Assembly: GCA_041393395.1 (NCBI GenBank)
Contig: JAWKKG010000002.1
Coordinates: forward strand, 124,468 to 188,467
Length of the DNA stretch: 64,000 nt
Direction of reading: 5' to 3'
Origin: a bacterium
Lineage (GTDB): Bacteria > ARS69
The translations under genes and the position numbers were made by a program. A model generated the notes under the pieces. It searched no databases. It was given only the letters and a program-made list of their open reading frames with translations, and was not told where the DNA came from. The stretch's first letter is position 1; the number at the start of each line of letters is the position of its first letter. Positions 31,393 through 61,970 of the stretch are shown here, piece after piece.

Positions 31393-31468
31393 ACGCCGCG
31401 TCTCGCGCCCGGGGCCCCGCGTCTCGCCCGGGCCCCGCGTCTCGCCCGGAGCCCCGCGTCTCGCCCAC
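31393..31468. repeat. About 19-bp tandem repeat, 4 copies (CCCCGCGTCTCGCCCGGGG-like)
   Basis: cgcgtctcgcgcccggggccccgcgtctcgcccgggccccgcgtctcgcccggagccccgcgtctcgcccaccc. Confidence 0.65.
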
Positions 31469-31511
31469 CCGTTCCTGCCCCCGATGTTTCTCTCGAGCCC
31501 TGGACGTCTGC

Positions 31512-31535
31512 TACCGATATGATATCATATCGGTA
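31512..31535. promoter_or_regulatory. Perfect 24-bp AT-rich palindrome TACCGATATGATATCATATCGGTA, a candidate operator (possibly overlapping a -10), 31 bp upstream of the SPFH gene
   Basis: It is exactly self-complementary and strikingly AT-rich in a roughly 70% GC background. Confidence 0.45.
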
Positions 31536-31565: not shown

Positions 31566-32435
31566 ATGACCAGGGAAACAGTTTCGAAGCCGGCTTCCGG
31601 CGGATTGATGGTCGTGCTGCTGTTCGCGTTGCTCGCTCTTTCCGTCGCGCTCCTGATCGGGGGCGGTTCGAGCAGTTCCCCGCCGATCATCGTGGCCGGT
31701 GTGCTCGGCATTCTCCTGACGGTCCTGCTCGTGAACGGCTTCCTCGTCGTCCAGCCGAACCAGGCGGCGGCGCTCGTCTTCTTCGGGAAGTACGTCGGTT
31801 CCGTGAAGACGAACGGATTCTTCTGGGTCAATCCGTTCATCGTGAAGAAGAAGGTATCGCTTCGAGCCCGCAACCTGAACGGCGAGCGGTTGAAGGTCAA
31901 CGATCGGGCGGGGAACCCGATCGAGATCGCGGCCGTCGTCGTGTGGCAGGTTCAGAACACCGCCCAGTGCCTGTTCGACGTGGACGACTACGTCGAGTAC
32001 GTCAAGACCCAGAGCGAGTCGGCGGTGCGTCACCTCGCCACGTCGTATCCCTACGACTCCGCCGATGCGGCGGGCGAGCATTCACTCCGGGGCGACATCG
32101 AGGTCGTGAGTGGTCAACTCGAGCGCGAGCTCGCGGAACGCCTCTCGCGAGCGGGAGTCGACGTCCTGGAAGCGCGTCTCTCGCACCTCGCCTACGCACC
32201 GGAGATCGCCGGTGCGATGCTGCAGCGTCAGCAGGCGGACGCGATCATCGCCGCGCGCGCGAAGATCGTGGACGGCGCTGTGGGCATGGTCGAGGACGCG
32301 CTGAATCATCTCGGTCAGCGGCAGATCGTCGAGCTGGACGACGAGCGCAAGGCCCAGATGGTGATGAATCTCCTGGTGGTGCTGTGCGGTCACGCCGACG
32401 CGCAGCCGGTGCTCAACGCGGGCTCGATGTACTAG
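31566..32435 (+). CDS. SPFH/Band-7 (stomatin/prohibitin-like) membrane protein
   Basis: GAAGGAGGA RBS, N-terminal TM helix, SPFH core, coiled-coil C-terminus; 289 aa. Confidence 0.85.
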
Positions 32436-52448: not shown

Positions 52449-53686
52449 GACTCCCGCAGGTGATGCGCATCGCGAAGCGCGAGTACGTGGAGAGCGTGCG
52501 CAAGAAGTCGTTCGTGTTCGGTCTGATCGCCACGCCGGTGCTGCTGCTGATGATGGTGGTGCTGCCGCTCGTGTCCGGTGCCCTGTTCGACGCGGACGAG
52601 GCGAGGATCGCCGTCGTGGATCCCACGGGCGAGATCGGGCCGCGGCTCGCCGGCACGGACTGGCCGAGCGGAGACGGCGCGCGCACGCGCTCCGAGTTCG
52701 TGGTGTACGAGAGCAATGCACCTTCTCCCGAGACGCTGGACGCGCTCGTGGCGGCCGGCGAGTACAGCGGCTGGCTGCGCGTGCCCGAGGACTTCGAGCA
52801 GACGGGCAAGTACGAGTACCGCAGCGAGTCGGTCACGAACGTGGCGCTCCTGCAGGCGCTGGAGACGCGACTCGATCAGCTCGCGGCGGAGCGGGAGGCG
52901 CGCCGTCTCGGGCTGGACGACGCGCAGGTCGAGCGCCTGCTCGCCGGCACGTCGCTGCGCACGATCCGTCTCGGCGCCGATGGAGCGTCCGAGGCCGACT
53001 TCACGCAGGTGTACCTGAAGGCCGTGGCGCTCGTGATGATCCTGTTCTTCGCGCTGATCCCCACCGGCCACATCCTCATGCGGTCCGTGATCGAGGAGAA
53101 GGCGAACCGCGTGATCGAGGTGCTCGTGTCCAGCGTGTCGCCGCTGGAGCTGATGACGGGGAAGGTGCTGGGCCTCGGTGCCGTGGGGCTCACGATGCTC
53201 GGCGTGTGGACGGTGGCGGGCACGCTGCTGTCGATCCGGTTCGGGCGCGCGCTGCCGGTCGCGGGCGGAGAGCTCGCGGTGTTCGCGGCGTTCTTCGTGC
53301 CCGGTTACTTCCTGTTCGCCGCGCTGCTCGGCGGCATCGGCTCGGTGTGCCGCACCGAGCGCGACGCGCAGCCGTTCCTCACGCCGATCTCGATGACGAT
53401 GCTGCTGCCGGTGATGATCGGGTTCGCGATCGCGCAGCAGCCGGATCACTGGCTCGCGCGCGCGCTCACGTTCTTTCCCCCGATGACGCCGAGCCTCGTG
53501 CTGTTCCGCTACGCGATCAAGCCGCCCCCGTTCGCGGAGATGGCCGCGGCGTGGGTCTTGCTCGTGGCGGGCACGGTGATCACGCTGATCGCGGCGTCGC
53601 GCGTGTTCCGCACCGGCATCCTCATGACGGGCAAGCGGCCGACGTTGCCGGAGCTGCTGCGCTGGGCGAGGGCGTCGGCGGGGTAG
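52445..53686 (+). CDS. ABC-2 family transporter permease
   Basis: ATG overlaps the ATPase stop (ATGA). N-terminal TM, a large extracytoplasmic loop, then 5 C-terminal TMs; 413 aa. Confidence 0.8.
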   Translation: MRLPQVMRIAKREYVESVRKKSFVFGLIATPVLLLMMVVLPLVSGALFDADEARIAVVDPTGEIGPRLAGTDWPSGDGARTRSEFVVYESNAPSPETLDALVAAGEYSGWLRVPEDFEQTGKYEYRSESVTNVALLQALETRLDQLAAEREARRLGLDDAQVERLLAGTSLRTIRLGADGASEADFTQVYLKAVALVMILFFALIPTGHILMRSVIEEKANRVIEVLVSSVSPLELMTGKVLGLGAVGLTMLGVWTVAGTLLSIRFGRALPVAGGELAVFAAFFVPGYFLFAALLGGIGSVCRTERDAQPFLTPISMTMLLPVMIGFAIAQQPDHWLARALTFFPPMTPSLVLFRYAIKPPPFAEMAAAWVLLVAGTVITLIAASRVFRTGILMTGKRPTLPELLRWARASAG

Positions 53687-53830
53687 GGTTCGGGAATCCC
53701 GGATGCCGACCCGAGGTCGGCTCGAATACGTTCATATCAATGGAGTCGACGTCCGGCGACTCCCCAGCGCGCCTCTCCCCCGCGCGCTCGCCGAGACTCC
53801 TTCCACGCTCGTTGCGGCCTCCGAGCGTCT

Positions 53831-53882
53831 GCGACCGGATCCGCCGGTCGCTACTGCCCTCCCTCCCGGGAGACGCAAGATG
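53831..53882 (+). promoter_or_regulatory. Conserved 5' leader, copy A: 8-bp-arm palindrome GCGACCGG-ATCCG-CCGGTCGC, a C-rich tract, SD inside the palindrome CTCCCGGGAG, and the ATG
   Basis: Near-identical over 52 bp to 59189..59240 (copy B), which sits upstream of the paralogous beta-helix gene. Confidence 0.55.
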
Positions 53883-56800
53883 CGCAGGTTCTTGCAAGTC
53901 CTGGCACGAATCGTGCCCCCCCCCATTTCTGGAAACAGGTAGCGCGCTCGGAATCGCGGCACTCGCTCTGATACCCTGGTCCACAGCCCGGGCGGACGTT
54001 ACCGACGCCCGGCTCTGGGAGCCCGCCGTGCAGATGACGTTTGCCGAGTTCGACGTGCAGGTGCTGGCCAAGCAGCTCGCCCGCCGATCGGGTGGGGGGT
54101 TCCATCAGATCGTGGAAGCGTGGTCCGACAGCCTCGGTCGCAACAACGGCTTCGGCTGGTACCTCGAGGTCGGACCGTCCCTCGATTGGGCTTCGGCCTG
54201 GCAGGATCGCGAGCTGTTCACTTTCGTTCCCGACACGACTGTCGGAAACAAGGTCCCGTACGGGCATTCCGACTTTCGCATGCTCGTCAGCAACGACGAC
54301 GACGTACACGCGTTCTACGAGGCGAAGTTCTATCCGCCCGATTCGATCCGAGCAATGGTCGCTTACAAACGTCGGGGTGGGGTGTCGTGGGACTCCGCGT
54401 CCGACCCGGTGTTTCTCGCTCCCGGCTGCGTGAGTGACTCGCCGCGCCCCTACTACGATAGCGAAACAGACATCATGCACCTGATGTTCACGGCGGCGGC
54501 TACCACGGGATGCTACCCCGCTCCTCCGTCCGGCACGGACCTGCAGGTCTATACGAGAAAGGCAGTGTCCGCCGCAGACTCCGCTTGGGCGCCGCTGACG
54601 TACATGTACCCGAGCATTGGCCTCGGTCCGATCGGGGGCGGTGTGTTCGCGGAAGCCGACACGGTGCACTTCTTCGGGAGTCGAACAGAGAACCAAAGCG
54701 GGTGGAAAGTCGTCACGGTGATCCACCGGAGCGGACTCCGCCCGCCCCCGGCGAGTACTGGACGTTCGCCCACGTCGATACGCTCGACTCTTTTCTGGTG
54801 CCTGGTGATGGCGATCCCCGATCGGAGCCCGAGGACCAGCCCACACCCTTCGAAGGGGCCAGCGGCGACTCCCTCTACGTGGCCTGGGCTCGACCGATGG
54901 GTACGACCGGCGCCGACGAGGTGATGTTCGCCGTCTACGATCTTCGGGACACTTTATGGACCCCGGACAACTGCCCCACGGGTAACTGCGGTTCGCTTCC
55001 CCCGTTCGGTCTCCAGCTCACGACGACGGATGATTCCGCGGAGGACTCGTGGGATCCAAAGGTGGTCGTAGACGCGGCCGGCGCCGTTCACGTCTTCTAT
55101 CGCGTCGGCGATCCCTCGACCCTGCAGCACTTGTTCAACTCTGGCGACCCGACCAACCTCGCGGACTGGAGCGAGCCGACGATCCTGTCGTTCGAGGAGG
55201 AGCACACGGCGAGACTGCCGACGGTGGTCGCCGACGCTGACACCCTGTGGGTCGCGTACTCCGCTCAGTCTCTGACCGGATGCACGGCGAATTGCCGGCA
55301 GGGCTTCTTCAAGCTCGGCACCCGTCACGTGAACTGGGGCGGCACGGTCAACGTCCGCTCGGACTTCGTCGTGGCGTCGGCCGGCACGCTCTCGATCGCG
55401 CCGGGCACCACGGTGATCGCGGGCGCGGCTCCCGTCGGAAACCTGGGCAATCGCGCGGACGACGTCGAGATCGTGGTGGGCGGAACCCTGCTCGCGGAAG
55501 GAACGTCGACCGAGGCGGTGACCTTCACCGGAGATGTCGCGACCCCGGGATCCTGGGGAGGCATCTTGTTCCGCGACACCGCCGACGACTCGCCGAGTTC
55601 GATCTCGTACGCCGACTTCGAGTATCCGGAGTTCGCGGTGCAGGTCGACTCGCTGGCCGGGACGCTGTTTCGGCCCACGTTTGCGGGAGTCGCCCAGGCC
55701 GACGTCTACGTTGATCGGAGTACACGGTTGCCGCTGGGATCGGCCTGGTGGTTCGAATCCCCCGTGAGCATCCGCGTTGCTTCTGAGGACGCCGCCCAGC
55801 CGGGTGGTGACATCTCCATCACCATCGACGGCGACCTGTACGCGCAGCCCGCGGGTGGCCGGGTGCAGGTTCTGTCCGCGTCCCCGACCGCAAGCGGGGA
55901 GGACTGGGAGGGGATGGTCGTCCGGTCTGCGGGCACGATCATCGCCTCGAACCTCGAGATCGGGCACTGCCGCAATCCCCTGACTCTGCTTGCCGCGGAC
56001 CACGCGCAGCTCTTCGACAGTGAACTTCACACCTTCGCGGGAGACGGTGTGTTCGACTGGGGCTCAGATGCGCGCATCGAGCGATGCCTCATTTGGAACG
56101 GCGGGCTCGATGTGCAGGCGAGCGCTGGATCCGCGATTCGCAGCATCAGCTCGGCGACTTGGGCTCTTGCCGACACCATCGACGGTCGGTTTTCGCACGG
56201 AATCTGGAGCTCGTATTCATACGGATTCTGCACCGCGGCCCCGATTCCGCTCGGGAAGACCATCCAGATCGACGGGAATGTGATCCGAGGCCCCGGCGTC
56301 GAACACCCTTCGGAGACGGGACGCGGACTGTACGTCGAGTGGATCTGTCACGGAATCGACGCGCTGGTGTCGGACAACTGTGTCTCGCAGTGGCCGCAGC
56401 AGGGCATCTCGCTCTCCAATGCGGCCAACACCCAGGTCGCGTGCAACTGGGTGGACAGTACGGAAGTCGGACTGAAACATTTCCGGGGCGATCATGTTCC
56501 CTCGGGTGACGCGGACGTCCAGTTCCGACGGAACGTTGTCAGTGCCTGGGAGACTCGCGGCATCAACGTGACCTCTCCGGAGGGGTTCGAAATGGCGGAT
56601 CTCTCCACAGCGGCGCGGAACGAGGTGCGCCAGGATGGCCAGGACGACACCTTCGTTCGGTTTCGCCCCACGAGCAGCACGCAAGGTGCCGAGTTCGATG
56701 TGAGCAACCAGCTCTGGGTTGACCCCACCGGCGCCGTTCTCACGGATCCTGCGGACGTGCTCACCGACTGCGACTTCAACCTGCTGTCGCCCATCGTGAT

Positions 56801-57206
56801 CACCTCGCTGCTGACGTCCCAGGAGCGCTGCGCGAGCATAGCGACGTGCCCAGGAAGCTCGCAGGCGGTGGCCCGGCGAGGCGCAGACCGCGCACCGGAA
56901 CCAGGAGCAGAACGTGGCGACCCGCCACGCCGTTTCGAGAGCTTCGTGGAAACGGTGGCCGGGCGAGCGCGAGTCGTGCTGGCCGGTCCGGCGGACACGG
57001 AGCCGCCCGTGCAGGGGCGTGTCTACGACGTCGCCGGGCGTCTCGTTCAGGAGGTCCATGGCACCTTGGTGTCTCCCGGTCGGTACGTGCTCGAATGGAA
57101 CGGCTCGACTGGGGCAGGCCATCAAGCGGCAGACGGTGTGTACTTCTTGCGCGTCGAAGCCCCGGGCCATCATCGAACGCACAAGATCGTCCGGATCCGG
57201 AGGTAG
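53880..57206 (+). CDS. Large secreted protein: BNR/sialidase-like N-terminal region, right-handed beta-helix region, and a FlgD-Ig/T9SS-type C-terminal domain. As sequenced, the reading frame is broken twice at homopolymeric C tracts (C9 at 53916..53924 and C5 at 54745..54749), so it may be a pseudogene, a sequencing artefact or phase-variable.
   Basis: Frame 0 gives ATG 53880 MRRFLQVLARIVPPP..., which stops at 53942. Frame 1 (53925..54749) continues a signal-peptide-like ...FLETGSALGIAALALIPWSTARA|DVTD... and plausible protein up to ...WKVVTVIHRSG. Frame 0 again (54750..57206) runs GEYWTFAHVD... to the C-terminus ...GRVYDVAGRLVQEVHGTLVSPGRYVLEWNGS...GVYFLRVEA.... Removing one C at the first tract and adding one at the second restores a single ORF of about 1105 aa. 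Confidence 0.55.
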
Positions 57207-57208
57207 CC

Positions 57209-58513
57209 ATGCGACGACTTTCGATTTCGGGCGGAGTGATCGCCCTTCTCTCGACAGGGTTCGCTTCGATCGACGTGGCTTCCGCGACGACTCTACGGGT
57301 CCCCGAGGACTTCCCGACCATTCAAGCGGCCGTGGACGCGGCGGGTCCGATCGACGTCGTGGACGTCGCCCCGGGCACGTGGTCGGACGCGGAGACGCGT
57401 TCCGTCTGGAACGGCGGGATGTACGTCAACGTCCGGTCGGTCGTGTTCTTGAAACCGGGAATCACCGTGCGCTCTCGGAGTGGCGCCGAAGCCACGGTCA
57501 TCGACCTGTCGCTGAACCCCGGTCCGGGGTTCCAGACCCCCGTGGTCTATCCGGGACAACAGGCGGGGCCCGCGACGATCCAGGGCTTCACGGTGCTCGG
57601 AGCCGGCTCGGGCGGAGGCGGCATCAGTTCCCTCGCGGCGCAGAAGCTCATCGTCCGCGACTGCATCGTGCGGGACATCCACACCGGGGGACGTGCGATC
57701 ACGACGGCCAACGGCGGTGGGCTGGAGATCTACGACACCCTCGTGGAGAACGTCACCTTGCTCGGCGGCACCGCGGTCCGCGCCATCAGCGGCGGAAGTC
57801 TGAAGATGATCCGGACTACGATTCGCGACAACTCGGCGGGTGGGGTCTACTCCACGGTTCCGACGATCCTCGAGGATTGCAACTTCGTCCGGAATCGGAC
57901 GACGCAAGTGGGAGCAGGAGCCAACCTCCAGGGGCCGTCCGAAGTCACGCGGTGTCTGTTTCAGGAGAATGTCTCGCTGGAGGATCCAGGCGGGGGATTG
58001 GTCGTCTCGTCGTCACCCGCTGTAGTCGAGGGATGCACTTTCGCTCGCGATTCCTGCGGCGCCACGGGAGCGGCGGCGGGGATGTGGGTGGCTTATGCGC
58101 CGGGACTCTCGGTGATTCGCAACAACACATTCGTCGGGTGCCATTCTCCGGTCTTCCCTGCATCTGCGTTCGGCGTGTCCAGTAGCGTCGTCGAGTTCTC
58201 GAACAACATCGTCGCTGGCAGCACCGGATCGGCCGCACTGCACAACGTTGGTGGCACGATCACGGGGGGCTGCAACGACTACTGGAACAACGAGGAAGGG
58301 GACTTCGAGGCCTGGACCCCGCTCCCCACCGACTTGTCCGCCGATCCACTCTTTTGCGATCCCGAAGCTCACGATTTCCGACTGCACAGCAACTCTCCTT
58401 GCGCGCCGGATCAGAACCCGACCTGCGGTCAGGTCGGAGCTTGGTCCGTCGCGTGCGGTTCCGTGTCCATCGAGCCCCTGTCCTGGGGGCGAATCAAGGG
58501 GGCGTACCGATGA
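57209..58513 (+). CDS. Secreted right-handed beta-helix protein, paralog A, with the ...SWGRIKGAYR C-terminal tag
   Basis: GGAGG RBS 3 nt after the upstream stop. Signal peptide MRRLSISGGVIALLSTGFASIDVASA. N-terminal LRVPEDFPTIQAAVDAA is a pectin-lyase-fold hallmark. C-terminal module GCNDYWNNEEGDF...DPLFCDPEAHDFRLHSNSPC...CGSVSIEPLSWGRIKGAYR. 434 aa. Confidence 0.8.
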   Translation: MRRLSISGGVIALLSTGFASIDVASATTLRVPEDFPTIQAAVDAAGPIDVVDVAPGTWSDAETRSVWNGGMYVNVRSVVFLKPGITVRSRSGAEATVIDLSLNPGPGFQTPVVYPGQQAGPATIQGFTVLGAGSGGGGISSLAAQKLIVRDCIVRDIHTGGRAITTANGGGLEIYDTLVENVTLLGGTAVRAISGGSLKMIRTTIRDNSAGGVYSTVPTILEDCNFVRNRTTQVGAGANLQGPSEVTRCLFQENVSLEDPGGGLVVSSSPAVVEGCTFARDSCGATGAAAGMWVAYAPGLSVIRNNTFVGCHSPVFPASAFGVSSSVVEFSNNIVAGSTGSAALHNVGGTITGGCNDYWNNEEGDFEAWTPLPTDLSADPLFCDPEAHDFRLHSNSPCAPDQNPTCGQVGAWSVACGSVSIEPLSWGRIKGAYR

Positions 58514-59124
58514 AACCGCGTGCGATCTCGCTCGTCCTCGCAGTGCTCGCCGCTGCCACCTCCGTCCACGCCGAGACTCAGGTCTTCCCGTGCACGGAGC
58601 AGGCGGTGATCACCAGCGGCGCGGGTCTGGGGCGTCTTCTCTTCCGATTCGATGGCACGACGGTCCTGCGCGATGAACTCGTCACGGCGGCGTGGCTCGA
58701 TGTCTCCTGTTCGAACGCATCTGGCGACGCCCTCACCGTGCGGATGGCTCCGCTGGATCGGGCCTGGTCGGTCGGATCCGTGACCTGGACGTCTCCGTGG
58801 CACGACGCCGGCGGCGATCTCGCTCGAGCGTTCGTAACGACCGAGGACGTCGCGTCCAGTTCGGTCCGCCTGAACGTGACGGAGTGGGTGCGCAGTCACC
58901 TCGCCGGAGAGGTCGCGGACTACGGCCTCATGCTCACGGTCGACGACGGGGCGCGAGGGGGTCTTACCTCCAACGAACGAGCGATATTCGGCGATCCGCC
59001 GGTCGCCACGCTGACGATCGAGTTCCGTAGCTTGACGGCTCAAGGGATCGAAGGCGGGCCCCGCGCCTACTTGGCGCGTCGTGAGGCGCGCGTCGCGGCC
59101 GATCGGGCGGACCGGTTGAGGTAG
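58510..59124 (+). CDS. Small secreted partner protein A (unknown family), translationally coupled to beta-helix A
   Basis: ATG overlaps the upstream stop (ATGA). Signal peptide MKPRAISLVLAVLAAATSVHA. Paralogous to 60562..61191 through shared blocks S(V/A)TW(T/S)SPW, ...E(V/G)(A/L)(D/G)YGL(M/I)..., ...L(T/A)(I/L)(E/R)(F/V)RSLTA(Q/R)G. 204 aa. Confidence 0.7.
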   Translation: MKPRAISLVLAVLAAATSVHAETQVFPCTEQAVITSGAGLGRLLFRFDGTTVLRDELVTAAWLDVSCSNASGDALTVRMAPLDRAWSVGSVTWTSPWHDAGGDLARAFVTTEDVASSSVRLNVTEWVRSHLAGEVADYGLMLTVDDGARGGLTSNERAIFGDPPVATLTIEFRSLTAQGIEGGPRAYLARREARVAADRADRLR

Positions 59125-59188
59125 CGGACTCGGCGAGGCTGTCCGTCGCCCGGCGATGACCGCCTGGGCTTCGCTGAAGTTCTCGTCG

Positions 59189-59240
59189 GCGACCGGATCC
59201 GCCGGTCGCACCTGCCCTCCCTCCCGGGAGACGCAAGATG
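59189..59240 (+). promoter_or_regulatory. Conserved 5' leader, copy B (palindrome, C-rich tract, SD, ATG)
   Basis: GCGACCGGATCCGCCGGTCGCACCTGCCCTCCCTCCCGGGAGACGCAAGATGCG differs from copy A at only 2 positions. Confidence 0.55.
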
Positions 59241-60575
59241 CGAGGCCCTCGATCGATTGCACGCCGGAGACTTGTGTGCGGCGCGGCGACTGGTGGTGAT
59301 CCGATGAGATTGCGAATCACTCTCGCCGCGGGGATCGTCTTCGGTGTCGGCCTTGCTGCGGCCGACGCGAGCATCCTCCGGGTTCCTGAGGACTACTCGT
59401 CTGTCCTCGCGGCGGTCGACGCCGCGGTTTCGGGCGACAGCGTGCTCGTTCAGCCGGGCACTTGGACCGACACGGCGATCCGGATCGCTCCCACCGGAGC
59501 GTACGTCAAGTCCACGCTGTTCGTGAAGCCGGGCATCACCGTGCTGGGGCTCGGTGGACCGGAGGTCACGACGCTCGATGTTGGTCCGGAAGTTGGTGCG
59601 TTCGCCGTGACGATTACAAACAATGCTCCTGGCTCGGCGCCGTCGTACGTGATTGGCTTCACCATCACGGGTGGCGGGACAGGTGTTGGCGGATACGGCG
59701 GATCTCCCCTGGAGCTCCACGATTGCCGGATCGTCGACAATCCGCGGCAGGCGGCCAACATCGCCTACACCCGCTTGACCTTGGTCGGAGGAACAATCAC
59801 GGGAAATGCAGAGGGTCAGTCGAGCCCGCAGTGGGGATGTGTGTTCGGCCACGAAAGCGCCTTGGAACTGCGACAAGTCACGATCGAACGAAACTCAAAC
59901 GTCTTCGGTGTCGTTTTCGATAGCCAACCACAGTCTGTTCGCTTGATCGACTGCACGTTTCTCGACCAGACGCTCGCCTGCCGCGTCTGGGACTGCCCGG
60001 ACTTCGTGGTCGAGAACTGCTCGTTCGTCCGGTGTTCGGACGGTGGCATTCAAGTGCGAAACTGCCAGGGTCGGATCGAGTTCACGACGTTCGCTTATGA
60101 CACGTCCGGGGCGGGTGGGGGAGCCCAGCTGAGTCGCTCGACGATCGAAGTCAGCAACAACACGTTCTATCGCTGCCACACCGACGGATCCGCCGCCGCA
60201 CTGTCCGTTTCGTTCACGGACGGCGGCGTCCACAACAACATCTTCACGGGCTGCACGACACCCCGCGGCACGGTCTCCTTCGGCGGCGGCACCCAGCACC
60301 CCTCCACCGGCTGCAACCTCTTCTGGGACAACGAGGGCGACGACTTCTGGAACGACTGGGTCCCCGCCCCCACCGACATCGAGGCGGACCCCGAGTTCTG
60401 CAACGAAACCGTCCTCGACCTGACGCTGCACTCCACGTCCCCCGCCGCCTCCGCGAACTCCGCCTGCGGTCTCCTCGGCGCGTTCGATGTCGGCTGCGGC
60501 TCCGTCTCCGTCGACGCCACGAGCTGGGGTCGCCTCAAGAACCTCTACCGGAGCTCGGATCATGAAGACCGCTAG
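59238..60575 (+). CDS. Secreted right-handed beta-helix protein, paralog B, with the ...SWGRLKNLYR C-terminal tag
   Basis: The conserved-leader ATG at 59238 is in frame; an alternative start ATG at 59303 gives a clean signal peptide MRLRITLAAGIVFGVGLAAADA. LRVPEDYSSVLAAVDAA; beta-helix repeats; C-terminal module GCNLFWDNEGDDF...DPEFCNETVLDLTLHSTSP...CGSVSVDATSWGRLKNLYRSSDHEDR. Confidence 0.8.
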   Translation: MRGPRSIARRRLVCGAATGGDPMRLRITLAAGIVFGVGLAAADASILRVPEDYSSVLAAVDAAVSGDSVLVQPGTWTDTAIRIAPTGAYVKSTLFVKPGITVLGLGGPEVTTLDVGPEVGAFAVTITNNAPGSAPSYVIGFTITGGGTGVGGYGGSPLELHDCRIVDNPRQAANIAYTRLTLVGGTITGNAEGQSSPQWGCVFGHESALELRQVTIERNSNVFGVVFDSQPQSVRLIDCTFLDQTLACRVWDCPDFVVENCSFVRCSDGGIQVRNCQGRIEFTTFAYDTSGAGGGAQLSRSTIEVSNNTFYRCHTDGSAAALSVSFTDGGVHNNIFTGCTTPRGTVSFGGGTQHPSTGCNLFWDNEGDDFWNDWVPAPTDIEADPEFCNETVLDLTLHSTSPAASANSACGLLGAFDVGCGSVSVDATSWGRLKNLYRSSDHEDR

Positions 60576-61191
60576 AACGCATTCGATCGCGCTCCTCGCG
60601 CTCGCCGCCATCCTGGGCGCAGTCGCTCCTTCCCGGGCGAGCGAGCCGACTCTCTCCCTCTCGCGCACGGTGATCACGGACTCCTACGGCCGCTCCCGGA
60701 TCCTGTTCGAGATCCCGTCGTTGCAGGAGTACCGCGAGGAGTGGGTCTCCTCCGCCACCTTGATCCTCGACCTGCCTCCCGGATCCTTCCCGGGCGAAGT
60801 CGAGCTCCTGGTGGACGCCGTCGCGACCCCGTGGGGCGGAAGTGCCACGTGGAGTTCGCCGTGGACTCACCCCGGCGGCGACGTGGAAGGGCAGACCGGC
60901 GACGGCACCACCCTGGCCGCCGGACCGTCCCCGTCTCAGGTCCGACTCGACGTGACCACCGCGCTCCGCGGCATGGTGGAGGGCGACCTCGGCGAGTACG
61001 GACTCATCGTGTACCCGTCCGATCCCGCGAAGCCGGGGTTCACGGCCGCGGAATCCCAGGTGCTCGCCTCCGCCAGCGGGACGCTGGCGCTGCGGGTCCG
61101 CAGCCTCACCGCGCGCGGCTACCACGGGGGAGCCAAGGCGCTCCTGGATCGCAAGCGCAGCGCCCGACTCCTGGAGGACCATCCGCAGTAG
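60562..61191 (+). CDS. Small secreted partner protein B, paralog of 58510..59124
   Basis: ATG lies 14 nt before the upstream stop, so the genes overlap. Signal peptide MKTARTHSIALLALAAILGAVAPSRA. It has the same conserved blocks as partner A. 209 aa. Confidence 0.7.
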   Translation: MKTARTHSIALLALAAILGAVAPSRASEPTLSLSRTVITDSYGRSRILFEIPSLQEYREEWVSSATLILDLPPGSFPGEVELLVDAVATPWGGSATWSSPWTHPGGDVEGQTGDGTTLAAGPSPSQVRLDVTTALRGMVEGDLGEYGLIVYPSDPAKPGFTAAESQVLASASGTLALRVRSLTARGYHGGAKALLDRKRSARLLEDHPQ

Positions 61192-61228
61192 CGCCGCAAC
61201 CTCCTCCTCGCACGCTTCGAGCAATGAA

Positions 61229-61270
61229 GAAGGGCAGGCCGTCCTCGACGACCTGCCCTCGCTTCTTCAG
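61229..61270. terminator. Candidate bidirectional terminator hairpin between convergent genes
   Basis: AGGGCAGG-(14 nt loop)-CCTGCCCT is followed by CGCTTCTTC. The U-tract is weak. Confidence 0.35.
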
Positions 61271-61291
61271 CTCTCTCCGCCCGCGTCTCCG

Positions 61292-61747
61292 CTAGCGGTA
61301 GATCGACTTCACCCGACCCCAGCTCTCGCTCTCCACGGAGATCGCCGGGAACTCCGGGGCGCCCATCTGGATCCACTCGCGGATCACGTCGATGGTCGTC
61401 TGCGGCAGCGGGCCGCCGATGAGCGGCATCTGGTTGCCCACGATCCACGGGCAGTTCTCGAGCTTGCAGATGATGTAGCTGTTGTCCGGATCGAACGGCG
61501 CCACGCGAACCGCCGTGGGCACCTCCACGCTCGGCACGTCCACGAGGAAGCTGAACGCCTGGCCCTCGCGCAGGTCGAGGTTCGCCTGCATCGCGCCGCC
61601 GTGGCAGGCGGCGAGCGCGCAGCCCGGCGTGAAGACGTTCGCCTGGATGTCCTGCAGGGTGGGCTCGAACGGACCGCCCGCGGCCCGGGCGCTGCCGAAG
61701 CCGAGGAGGGTCAGAACGGAAAGAGTCGCAATCGTCGCAACGCGCAT
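61292..61747 (-). CDS. Small secreted Cys-motif protein carrying the same ...SESWGRVKSIYR C-terminal tag
   Basis: Start at ATG 61747. Signal peptide MRVATIATLSVLTLLGFGSARA. Contains CALAACHG (Cx4CH) and CKLENC. 151 aa. The 216-aa upstream extension is rejected. Confidence 0.6.
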   Translation of the reverse strand: MRVATIATLSVLTLLGFGSARAAGGPFEPTLQDIQANVFTPGCALAACHGGAMQANLDLREGQAFSFLVDVPSVEVPTAVRVAPFDPDNSYIICKLENCPWIVGNQMPLIGGPLPQTTIDVIREWIQMGAPEFPAISVESESWGRVKSIYR

Positions 61748-61970
61748 GGGCCGCTCCAATCGACGGGTCCAAGGGGTCTCCCGGACGCGCCGGAGCGCGC
61801 CGGGTGGGGGATTCCGGTTGCACCCCGTCGTGTGGAACGGGGGGATGTCGCGATGATAGTGGATTCGGAGTCTCCGAGGGAACCCCGGCGCTGCGCGAGG
61901 CGCTCGCCGCCGCCGCTCACGAGATCCGGATCCTTCTGTCACGAATTCCCCGGGGGCCCGGGAGCCCGCG

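Follow-up and report, generated by a model that had tools for sequence, protein, structure and literature searches.

A duplicated 59-nt leader ahead of two paralogous secreted-protein gene sets is most likely a product of recombination between paralogs

A 59-nt stretch occurs twice in the window (the whole 64-kb stretch of DNA analyzed here), in our best explanation because an operon of three secreted-protein genes, at whose head it stands, is present in two old copies arranged in tandem. The element would serve as 5' leader and site of translation initiation for the A-type gene that comes first in this operon, whose three products are predicted to be a large protein carrying a T9SS-like tail, a beta-helix protein, and a DNRLRE-like protein. 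Leader-A-B-C and leader-A'-D-E, both old, would have lain side by side as tandem paralogs until a near-total deletion of A' fused its leader and start codon to the last ~20 A' codons, directly before D. The near-identity of the two leaders would then not be inherited from the ancient operon duplication and would instead stem from recent gene conversion or a short partial duplication. We put the probability of this explanation as a whole, namely, a leader of two old tandem operons that was recently homogenized and whose second copy sits on a deleted A', at roughly 65%, and the repeat itself is most likely an ordinary product of recombination between paralogs.

The original prediction of a near-identical duplicated leader is borne out, and the identity can be extended to 59 nt with three differences (56/59 identical, 95%). 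The copies are direct repeats with sharp borders, spaced 5358 bp from start to start, and the sequences flanking them do not align with each other on either side. One difference is T/G at element position 5; the other two, TA/AC at positions 27-28, lie in the linker between the two hairpins. The 8-bp-arm palindrome, the 10-bp palindrome, and the Shine-Dalgarno (SD) sequence GGGAG embedded in the latter are all present as first described (Table 1). Both copies end in GGGAG-ACGCAAG-ATG, with GGGAG placed 7 nt before the ATG, and this is a credible ribosome-binding site (RBS) and start codon, as neighboring genes and relatives use GGAGG-type sites. Protein-coding conservation was considered as a cause of the repeat and rejected, as only one frame is open through the element and each of the three differences changes an amino acid in it.

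Within the window, the duplication is recovered by blastn at E=2e-22. With up to 3 mismatches allowed, searches for the 21-mer palindrome and for the 31-mer 3' half recover exactly two occurrences of each, against chance expectations of 0.07 and 0.00, respectively. A sensitive blastn search of the window found no third, diverged leader copy, the next best match being a 14-mer inside gene C (E = 0.01). This 14-nt exact match to the region of the hairpin 1 3' arm (GATCCGCCGGTCGC, positions 58993-59006) lies 190 nt upstream of leader 2 and is probably due to chance.

Table 1. Features of the duplicated leader, its surroundings, and related loci in other metagenomes
Feature	Position	Strand	Description or basis
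ABC-2 permease	ends 53686	+	upstream of leader 1
Leader copy 1	53826..53884	+	5' flank CGTCT, hairpin 1, C-rich tract, SD, spacer, ATGCG
Hairpin 1, perfect palindrome GCGACCGG-ATCCG-CCGGTCGC	53831..53851	+	8-bp arms, 5-nt loop; RNA -15.0 kcal/mol
CUCCC-UCCC-GGGAG stem-loop	53859..53872	+	-6.9 kcal/mol core, -9.6 with extension
10-bp palindrome CTCCCGGGAG	53863-53872	+	copy 1
SD GGGAG	53868-53872	+	copy 1
Gene A, large secreted beta-helix protein	53880..57206	+	FlgD_ig (T9SS-like) C-terminal domain; codon-position GC, ORFs, Pfam/NCBIfam
C9 homopolymer	53916..53924	+	codons 13-15 of A, 36 nt after start codon
Gene B, beta-helix protein (P0043, MEZ5063231.1)	57209..58513	+	ends SWGRIKGAYR; ORFs, Pfam/NCBIfam
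Gene C, DNRLRE/CBM96-like secreted protein	58510..59124	+	ATGA overlap with B
Intergenic, 59 nt	between gene C and leader 2		
Leader copy 2	59184..59242	+	hairpin 59189-59209, SD 59226-59230, ATG 59238-59240
Relic, last ~20 codons of deleted A-type gene (A')	59243..59307	+	frame 1: ...ALDRLHAGDLCAARRLVVIR-stop, tail-end register
Gene D, beta-helix paralog (P0001, MEZ5063233.1)	59304..60575	+	homology-supported start
Gene E, paralog of C	60562..61191	+	34.8% amino acid identity to C
Strong hairpin	61219..61273		between E and convergent ORF 61292-61942, z = -3.1
Conserved operon loci in metagenome contigs	L122 1-2486; L123 1-3279; L124 5242-8722		gene junctions tightly coupled or overlapping

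Genes were called from codon-position GC and ORFs, together with Pfam and NCBIfam matches. The resulting order, leader-A-B-C followed by leader-relic-D-E, reads as two paralogous three-gene operons, the second with a gutted first gene. The strong hairpin after E probably marks the end of the transcription unit and is probably a bidirectional terminator lacking a U tract; no comparable hairpin is present between gene C and leader copy 2 (z = -0.27). Upstream of copy 1, two other hairpins follow the stop codon of the ABC-2 gene. The neighboring genes are of the housekeeping kind (UbiA, UbiX/UbiD, peptidase S49, thioredoxin-like, and phosphodiesterase), and domain searches of the flanking genes identified neither a regulator gene nor an integrase or recombinase gene in or adjoining the segment.

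This layout bears on the suggestion that hairpin 1 is itself a terminator or insulator without a U tract, ending the upstream transcript (that of the ABC-2 gene in one case and of A-B-C in the other), with only the 3' half of the element functioning as a leader. Such a role would be compatible with the lack of any other hairpin between the stop codon of C and copy 2. Canonical U-tract terminators are also not enriched in 44-64 kb of the window (7 found versus 6.7 expected), so terminators here may lack U tracts, and the usual terminator criterion may not apply to this organism. Against it stand the two hairpins that already follow the ABC-2 stop codon, the result of a terminator scan, which found no terminator-like site at either copy and no T run after hairpin 1, and the joint copying of hairpin and RBS as one unit, which a terminator leaves unaccounted for. 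We therefore regard this suggestion as very improbable.

Two further features of the window are recorded here as observations in their own right. Five ORFs end in [ST]WGR[ILV]K..[YF]R, 1-8 residues before the stop codon, at about 2943, 44634, 58481 (B), and 60522 (D) on the plus strand and 61324 on the minus strand. CGSVS precedes this tail in B and D, and the tail recurs in homologs from other metagenomes (e.g., P0003). Three of the proteins, namely, B, D, and the ORF that ends at 61324, were scanned with Pfam and NCBIfam, and their tails are not covered by any model. The motif might serve as an uncharacterized C-terminal tag for sorting or anchoring. The second feature is an AT-rich, perfect palindrome of 24 bp at 31512-31535 (TACCGATATGATATCATATCGGTA). 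It follows 3-4 tandem repeats of CCCCGCGTCTCGCCCGG (about 31400-31470) and lies ~30 nt upstream of an SD (GAAGGAGGA) and an ATG at 31566; this intergenic palindrome looks like an operator.

The identity of the gene behind leader copy 2 is indicated by the short stretch between the leader and D. The relic ends in ...RLHAGDLCAARRLVVIR followed by a stop codon, in register with the A-like tail ends RMVAGDGRIVRRVVVLN, RAVTGGFLETRRIVVLQ, and RVEAPGHHRTHKIVRIRR, each likewise directly followed by a stop, and its TGA (59305-59307) overlaps the ATG of D as ATGA. As the relic peptide is too short for Pfam or NCBIfam scoring, we used an in-register ranking, in which it came second of the 961 stop-anchored 18-mers from the six frames of the window that were scored against T9SS-tail ends, flanked in rank by A itself and the window's one other genuine T9SS-type tail. 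After copy 2, codon-position GC favors frame 1 over the one set by the leader's ATG, and the relic does not resemble the 3' end of A. The tail match and the ATGA overlap together argue that leader 2 was the head of a second A-type gene, A', whose body has been lost between roughly codon 3 and a point about 20 codons ahead of its stop.

These findings modify the placement of the two copies proposed at the outset. That the repeat heads two related secreted-protein gene sets stands, but in the assembly the large gene is not in frame with the ATG of copy 1, and copy 2 does not directly precede the beta-helix paralog, lying 66 nt upstream of its homology-supported start with the gene relic between them. 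By comparison with P0002, P0003, and P0043, translation of D most likely begins at ATG 59304 (MRLRITLAAG...) and not at 59238 or at 59274, the latter being the GTG chosen by PGAP. Leader copy 2 has its ATG (59238) in the frame of D only through an accident of the deletion. Copy 2 may now supply a further in-frame start upstream of D or be inert.

The age of the two operons differs markedly from the apparent age of the leader identity. At the protein level, B and D share 39.6% identity, and C and E share 34.8%; the DNA of the operon bodies is 57-66% identical where it can be aligned, versus 95% for the leaders. The bodies are old paralogs. A recent tandem duplication of the whole 5358-bp unit was considered and rejected on the DNA comparison, in which unit 2 is not a recent copy of unit 1.

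An independent exchange of sequence within the same family can be seen elsewhere in this genome. D and P0002 (MEZ5063759.1), which is encoded about 500 genes away on the same 1,164,823-bp contig, share about 34% identity across alignment columns 1-270 but 98% (107/109 residues) at the C-terminus, a mosaic pattern pointing to a gene-conversion tract of recent origin. P0001, P0002, and P0043 are each the sole member of their 90% cluster. The sharp gap between 95% identity in the leader and the diverged bodies, taken together with the discontinuity between D and P0002, makes recent homogenization the most economical account of the leader identity. The right border of the leader tract coincides with the deletion junction. 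Conversion over 59 nt needs flanking homology, which is no longer visible and which, on the right side, the deletion may have removed; the left border of the tract is left unexplained by this account. With two copies, selection on every base and recent conversion are not formally separable. A remnant of segmental duplication, which the original prediction had named as the outcome that would speak against a function, is nonetheless the scenario closest to the data.

The same sharp borders could be read differently, with the copies as recombination-site-like direct repeats that bound a 5.36-kb A-B-C insert. This insert might have integrated at the leader by a single crossover, or might be excisable, so that genes are switched behind the upstream signals. 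Direct orientation, the lack of similarity in the flanks, the 5358-bp spacing, and membership in a recombinogenic gene family would all fit such an arrangement. On the other side, the repeats enclose nothing more than the conserved operon, neither the segment nor its neighboring genes include an integrase or recombinase, and neither the window nor the public collections scanned hold further copies. An integron attC site would be expected to show an inverse core RYYYAAC and a core GTTRRRY at its ends, along with an integrase and a cassette array. The element has no GTT or AAC core, and hence no GTTRRRY, and the flanking genes include no integrase. A dispersed palindromic repeat of the REP/BIME or MITE type would be expected in many, largely intergenic copies per genome that are unrelated to gene starts; the 64-kb window has two copies, both fused to an ATG, and the GTDB representative genomes, JGI metagenomes, and IMG/VR gave none. 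We assign very little probability to a recombination-site function, and homogenization between paralogs remains our preferred reading.

Comparison with other metagenomes helps to place the operon into context. The order of an A-like gene with a FlgD_ig tail, a B/D-like gene, and a C/E-like gene (206-211 aa, DNRLRE-like) is found in three independent metagenome contigs (Table 1), in which the B-like start follows the A-like stop by 5-12 nt; relatives of the source genome are labeled Eiseniibacteriota or Gemmatimonadota. The A-like genes of L122 and L123 are cut by contig ends and that of L124 is 5'-truncated. When compared with L122-L128 by blastn, the element found no match better than E = 0.6. 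In L127 (3270-3296) and L128 (5734-5760), the leader of a homolog 42% identical to D reads CUCCC-GCACC-GGGAG, 7 nt before a GTG start, and its CUCCC is predicted to pair with the SD GGGAG in the same arrangement as in the element.

The leader repeat is a lineage-specific feature, and wider scans recovered no extended copy of either half. In GTDB representative genomes, a set without the source genome, CCCTCCCTCCCGGGAGAC gave 23 single matches in unrelated phyla, none of which extended beyond the 18-mer. In JGI metagenomes, the hairpin 19-mer gave 98 matches, none of which extends, and many of these are coding sequence of the form GAC-CGG-ATC-CGC-CGG-TCG (DRIRRS). Scans of IMG/VR gave one chance match in one case and none in the other.

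A further aspect of the locus is the reading frame of gene A itself. As assembled, ATG 53880 (frame 0) runs into a stop after 20 codons, at 53940-53942, and coding then continues in frame 1 (about 53926-54735) and afterward in frame 0 (about 54750-57206). The C9 run within codons 13-15 is the longest homopolymer in the 64-kb window, in which all others are at most 7 nt long. Reading it as C8 joins ATG 53880 to the signal-peptide-like GSALGIAALALIPWSTARA, and the ATG of copy 1 then opens onto MRRFLQVLARIVPPPFLETGSALGIAALALIPWSTARA followed by DV..., which makes MRRFLQVLARIVPPPFLETGSALGIAALALIPWSTARA a plausible signal peptide of gene A. In the frame of the C8-corrected gene, no other start preceded by an SD was found, the only candidates being ATG 53740 and TTG 53812, both without an SD, and the extension from ATG 53740 is not coding-like (GC2 = 0.70). 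Together with its SD, the ATG of the element would thus work as the RBS and start of A.

Read-through of A also needs a second frame change, from frame 1 to frame 0, near 54725-54750 at GCCCGCCCCCGG, and PGAP annotates the frame-1 piece as a separate hypothetical protein of 298 aa (P0052, R3B81_00755). Gene A is either a pseudogene or the bearer of two indel errors. The C9 tract may mark a site of phase variation or slippage, and a wrong homopolymer length in the long-contig MAG assembly is an equally good explanation. The tail of gene A matches FlgD_ig at 33 bits (cut-off, 27) and TIGR04183 Por_Secre_tail at 16.2 bits, below the cut-off of 23; a T9SS type A cargo protein would be expected to have an N-terminal signal peptide as well as a C-terminal sorting domain, and gene A has the former only if C9 is read as C8. 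A homolog search with the N-terminal domain of A returned only itself, and a search with the body of A returned nothing at E <= 1e-10 among the matches listed.

It had also been proposed that the palindromes within the leader regulate the genes behind it, and the most developed form of this idea would be a selected cis-regulatory module that co-regulates both operons, with hairpin 1 acting as an operator bound by a dimeric protein or, once transcribed, as a stabilizing or protein-binding hairpin, and the C-rich tract masking the SD until some signal or factor unmasks it. The predicted RNA structure agrees with such a module to some extent. The two-hairpin fold of the 59-mer is predicted at both genomic locations, with -28.5 kcal/mol (z = -3.5) for copy 1 and -27.4 kcal/mol (z = -2.1) for copy 2, and its three substitutions avoid the stems, the SD, and the spacer, as would also be expected under constraint. 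The CUCCC/GGGAG stem-loop ahead of the homolog in L127 and L128 is a weak indication that pairing of the SD might be shared within the family. However, the L127 leader shows no unusual structure overall (z = 0.16), and CTCCC occurs nearby at roughly 7% of GGGAG-N5-9-ATG/GTG sites in the fetched GC-rich DNA, a set that is biased upward as it includes loci fetched with a pattern containing CTCCCGGGAG.

The controls argue further against a selected regulatory module. Perfect hairpins with arms of at least 8 bp number 30 in the window versus 24.8 in dinucleotide shuffles, which is the chance rate in DNA of 70% GC. An SD-occluding riboregulator or RNA thermometer would be expected to keep its SD more paired than ordinary starts do, but the probability of the SD being unpaired is 0.38 and 0.40 in the two copies versus 0.22-0.38 at the starts of B, C, D, and E. 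Occlusion of the SD is thus predicted by the fold and is no greater than at these neighboring genes. The operator of a dimeric factor would call for a palindrome that exceeds chance, a promoter at its position, and a cognate regulator; here, palindromes of such length are at the chance rate, no promoter is recognizable, and the neighbors include no regulator gene. The promoter scan found no sigma-70-like site at either copy and is uninformative in this genome. Rfam gave 0 matches over the whole window at the gathering threshold and, with E up to 10, only noise in 53600-54000 (miRNA and sRNA models of at most 15 bits). No other copy of the element was found in the window or in the public collections scanned, which were without the source genome, and copy 2 belongs to a deleted gene.

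Taken together, a selected cis-regulatory module appears unlikely, and the hairpins may be incidental or at most generic mRNA features; nothing shows that the palindromes of the repeat regulate anything. Shared regulation of the two gene sets, as first proposed, keeps its premise, in that a common leader with a credible SD and start heads both, but the regulatory conclusion is weakened because copy 2 heads a deleted gene, because the leaders are 95% identical against 57-66% for the surrounding DNA, and because gene conversion occurs in the family. More speculatively still, the 59-mer could be a selectively maintained control cassette, consisting of a protein-binding hairpin and an SD-masking C-tract, that is placed on the first gene of every paralogous A-B-C operon of this uncultured lineage, the third one elsewhere in the genome included, and that would, jointly with the C9 tract, switch surface or secreted beta-helix proteins ON or OFF. 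Were the element to recur at every operon of the family, it would offer a handle on the control of T9SS-type cargo in an uncultured lineage of the FCB group. Nothing found supports this recurrence, and we hold such a cassette to be quite improbable.

The main value of this analysis lies in annotation, as it describes two paralogous three-gene operons, an ATG ahead of D that comes from a gutted gene, and a gene A that is broken at C9. More generally, when short stretches of near-identity precede paralogs of a recombining family, they should not be read as a regulatory motif before palindrome frequency and background RNA pairing in GC-rich DNA have been controlled for.

When placed next to known systems, the locus shows partial likeness to several. 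A stable GC hairpin such as hairpin 1 (-15 kcal/mol) upstream of the RBS of an exported protein is reminiscent of 5'-proximal hairpins that stabilize mRNA, for example, in the E. coli ompA 5' untranslated region (UTR). SD-sequestering stem-loops in leaders are known from translational riboregulators and from RNA thermometers such as ROSE and fourU. In the element, a C/U-rich anti-SD stretch a few nucleotides upstream is similarly predicted to pair with the SD; unlike those thermometers, it carries no ROSE or fourU signature, has no Rfam match, and shows no greater occlusion than neighboring genes do. With about 59 nt, internal palindromes, and a position between genes of the same orientation, the element also resembles integron attC sites (the "59-base element") and REP/MITE repeats, from which it differs in having no R''/R' core sites or integrase, in occurring as two copies in 64 kb, and in including a start codon. 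Homopolymer-tract phase variation is known in surface-protein genes, and the C9 run 36 nt after the start codon similarly puts gene A out of frame; unlike a simple homopolymer switch, gene A also needs the second frame change near 54725-54750.

Bacterial families of surface and secreted proteins, such as Mycoplasma vsp/vlp and Neisseria opa/pil, are known for homogenized 5' ends and gene-conversion tracts. The locus described here differs from these families in that two copies are seen, one of them on a deleted gene, and in giving no sign of programmed variation, silent cassettes, or a dedicated recombinase. It shares with them a near-identical block of leader, RBS, and start codon in strongly diverged paralogs of exported proteins, as well as a second mosaic tract, that between D and P0002.
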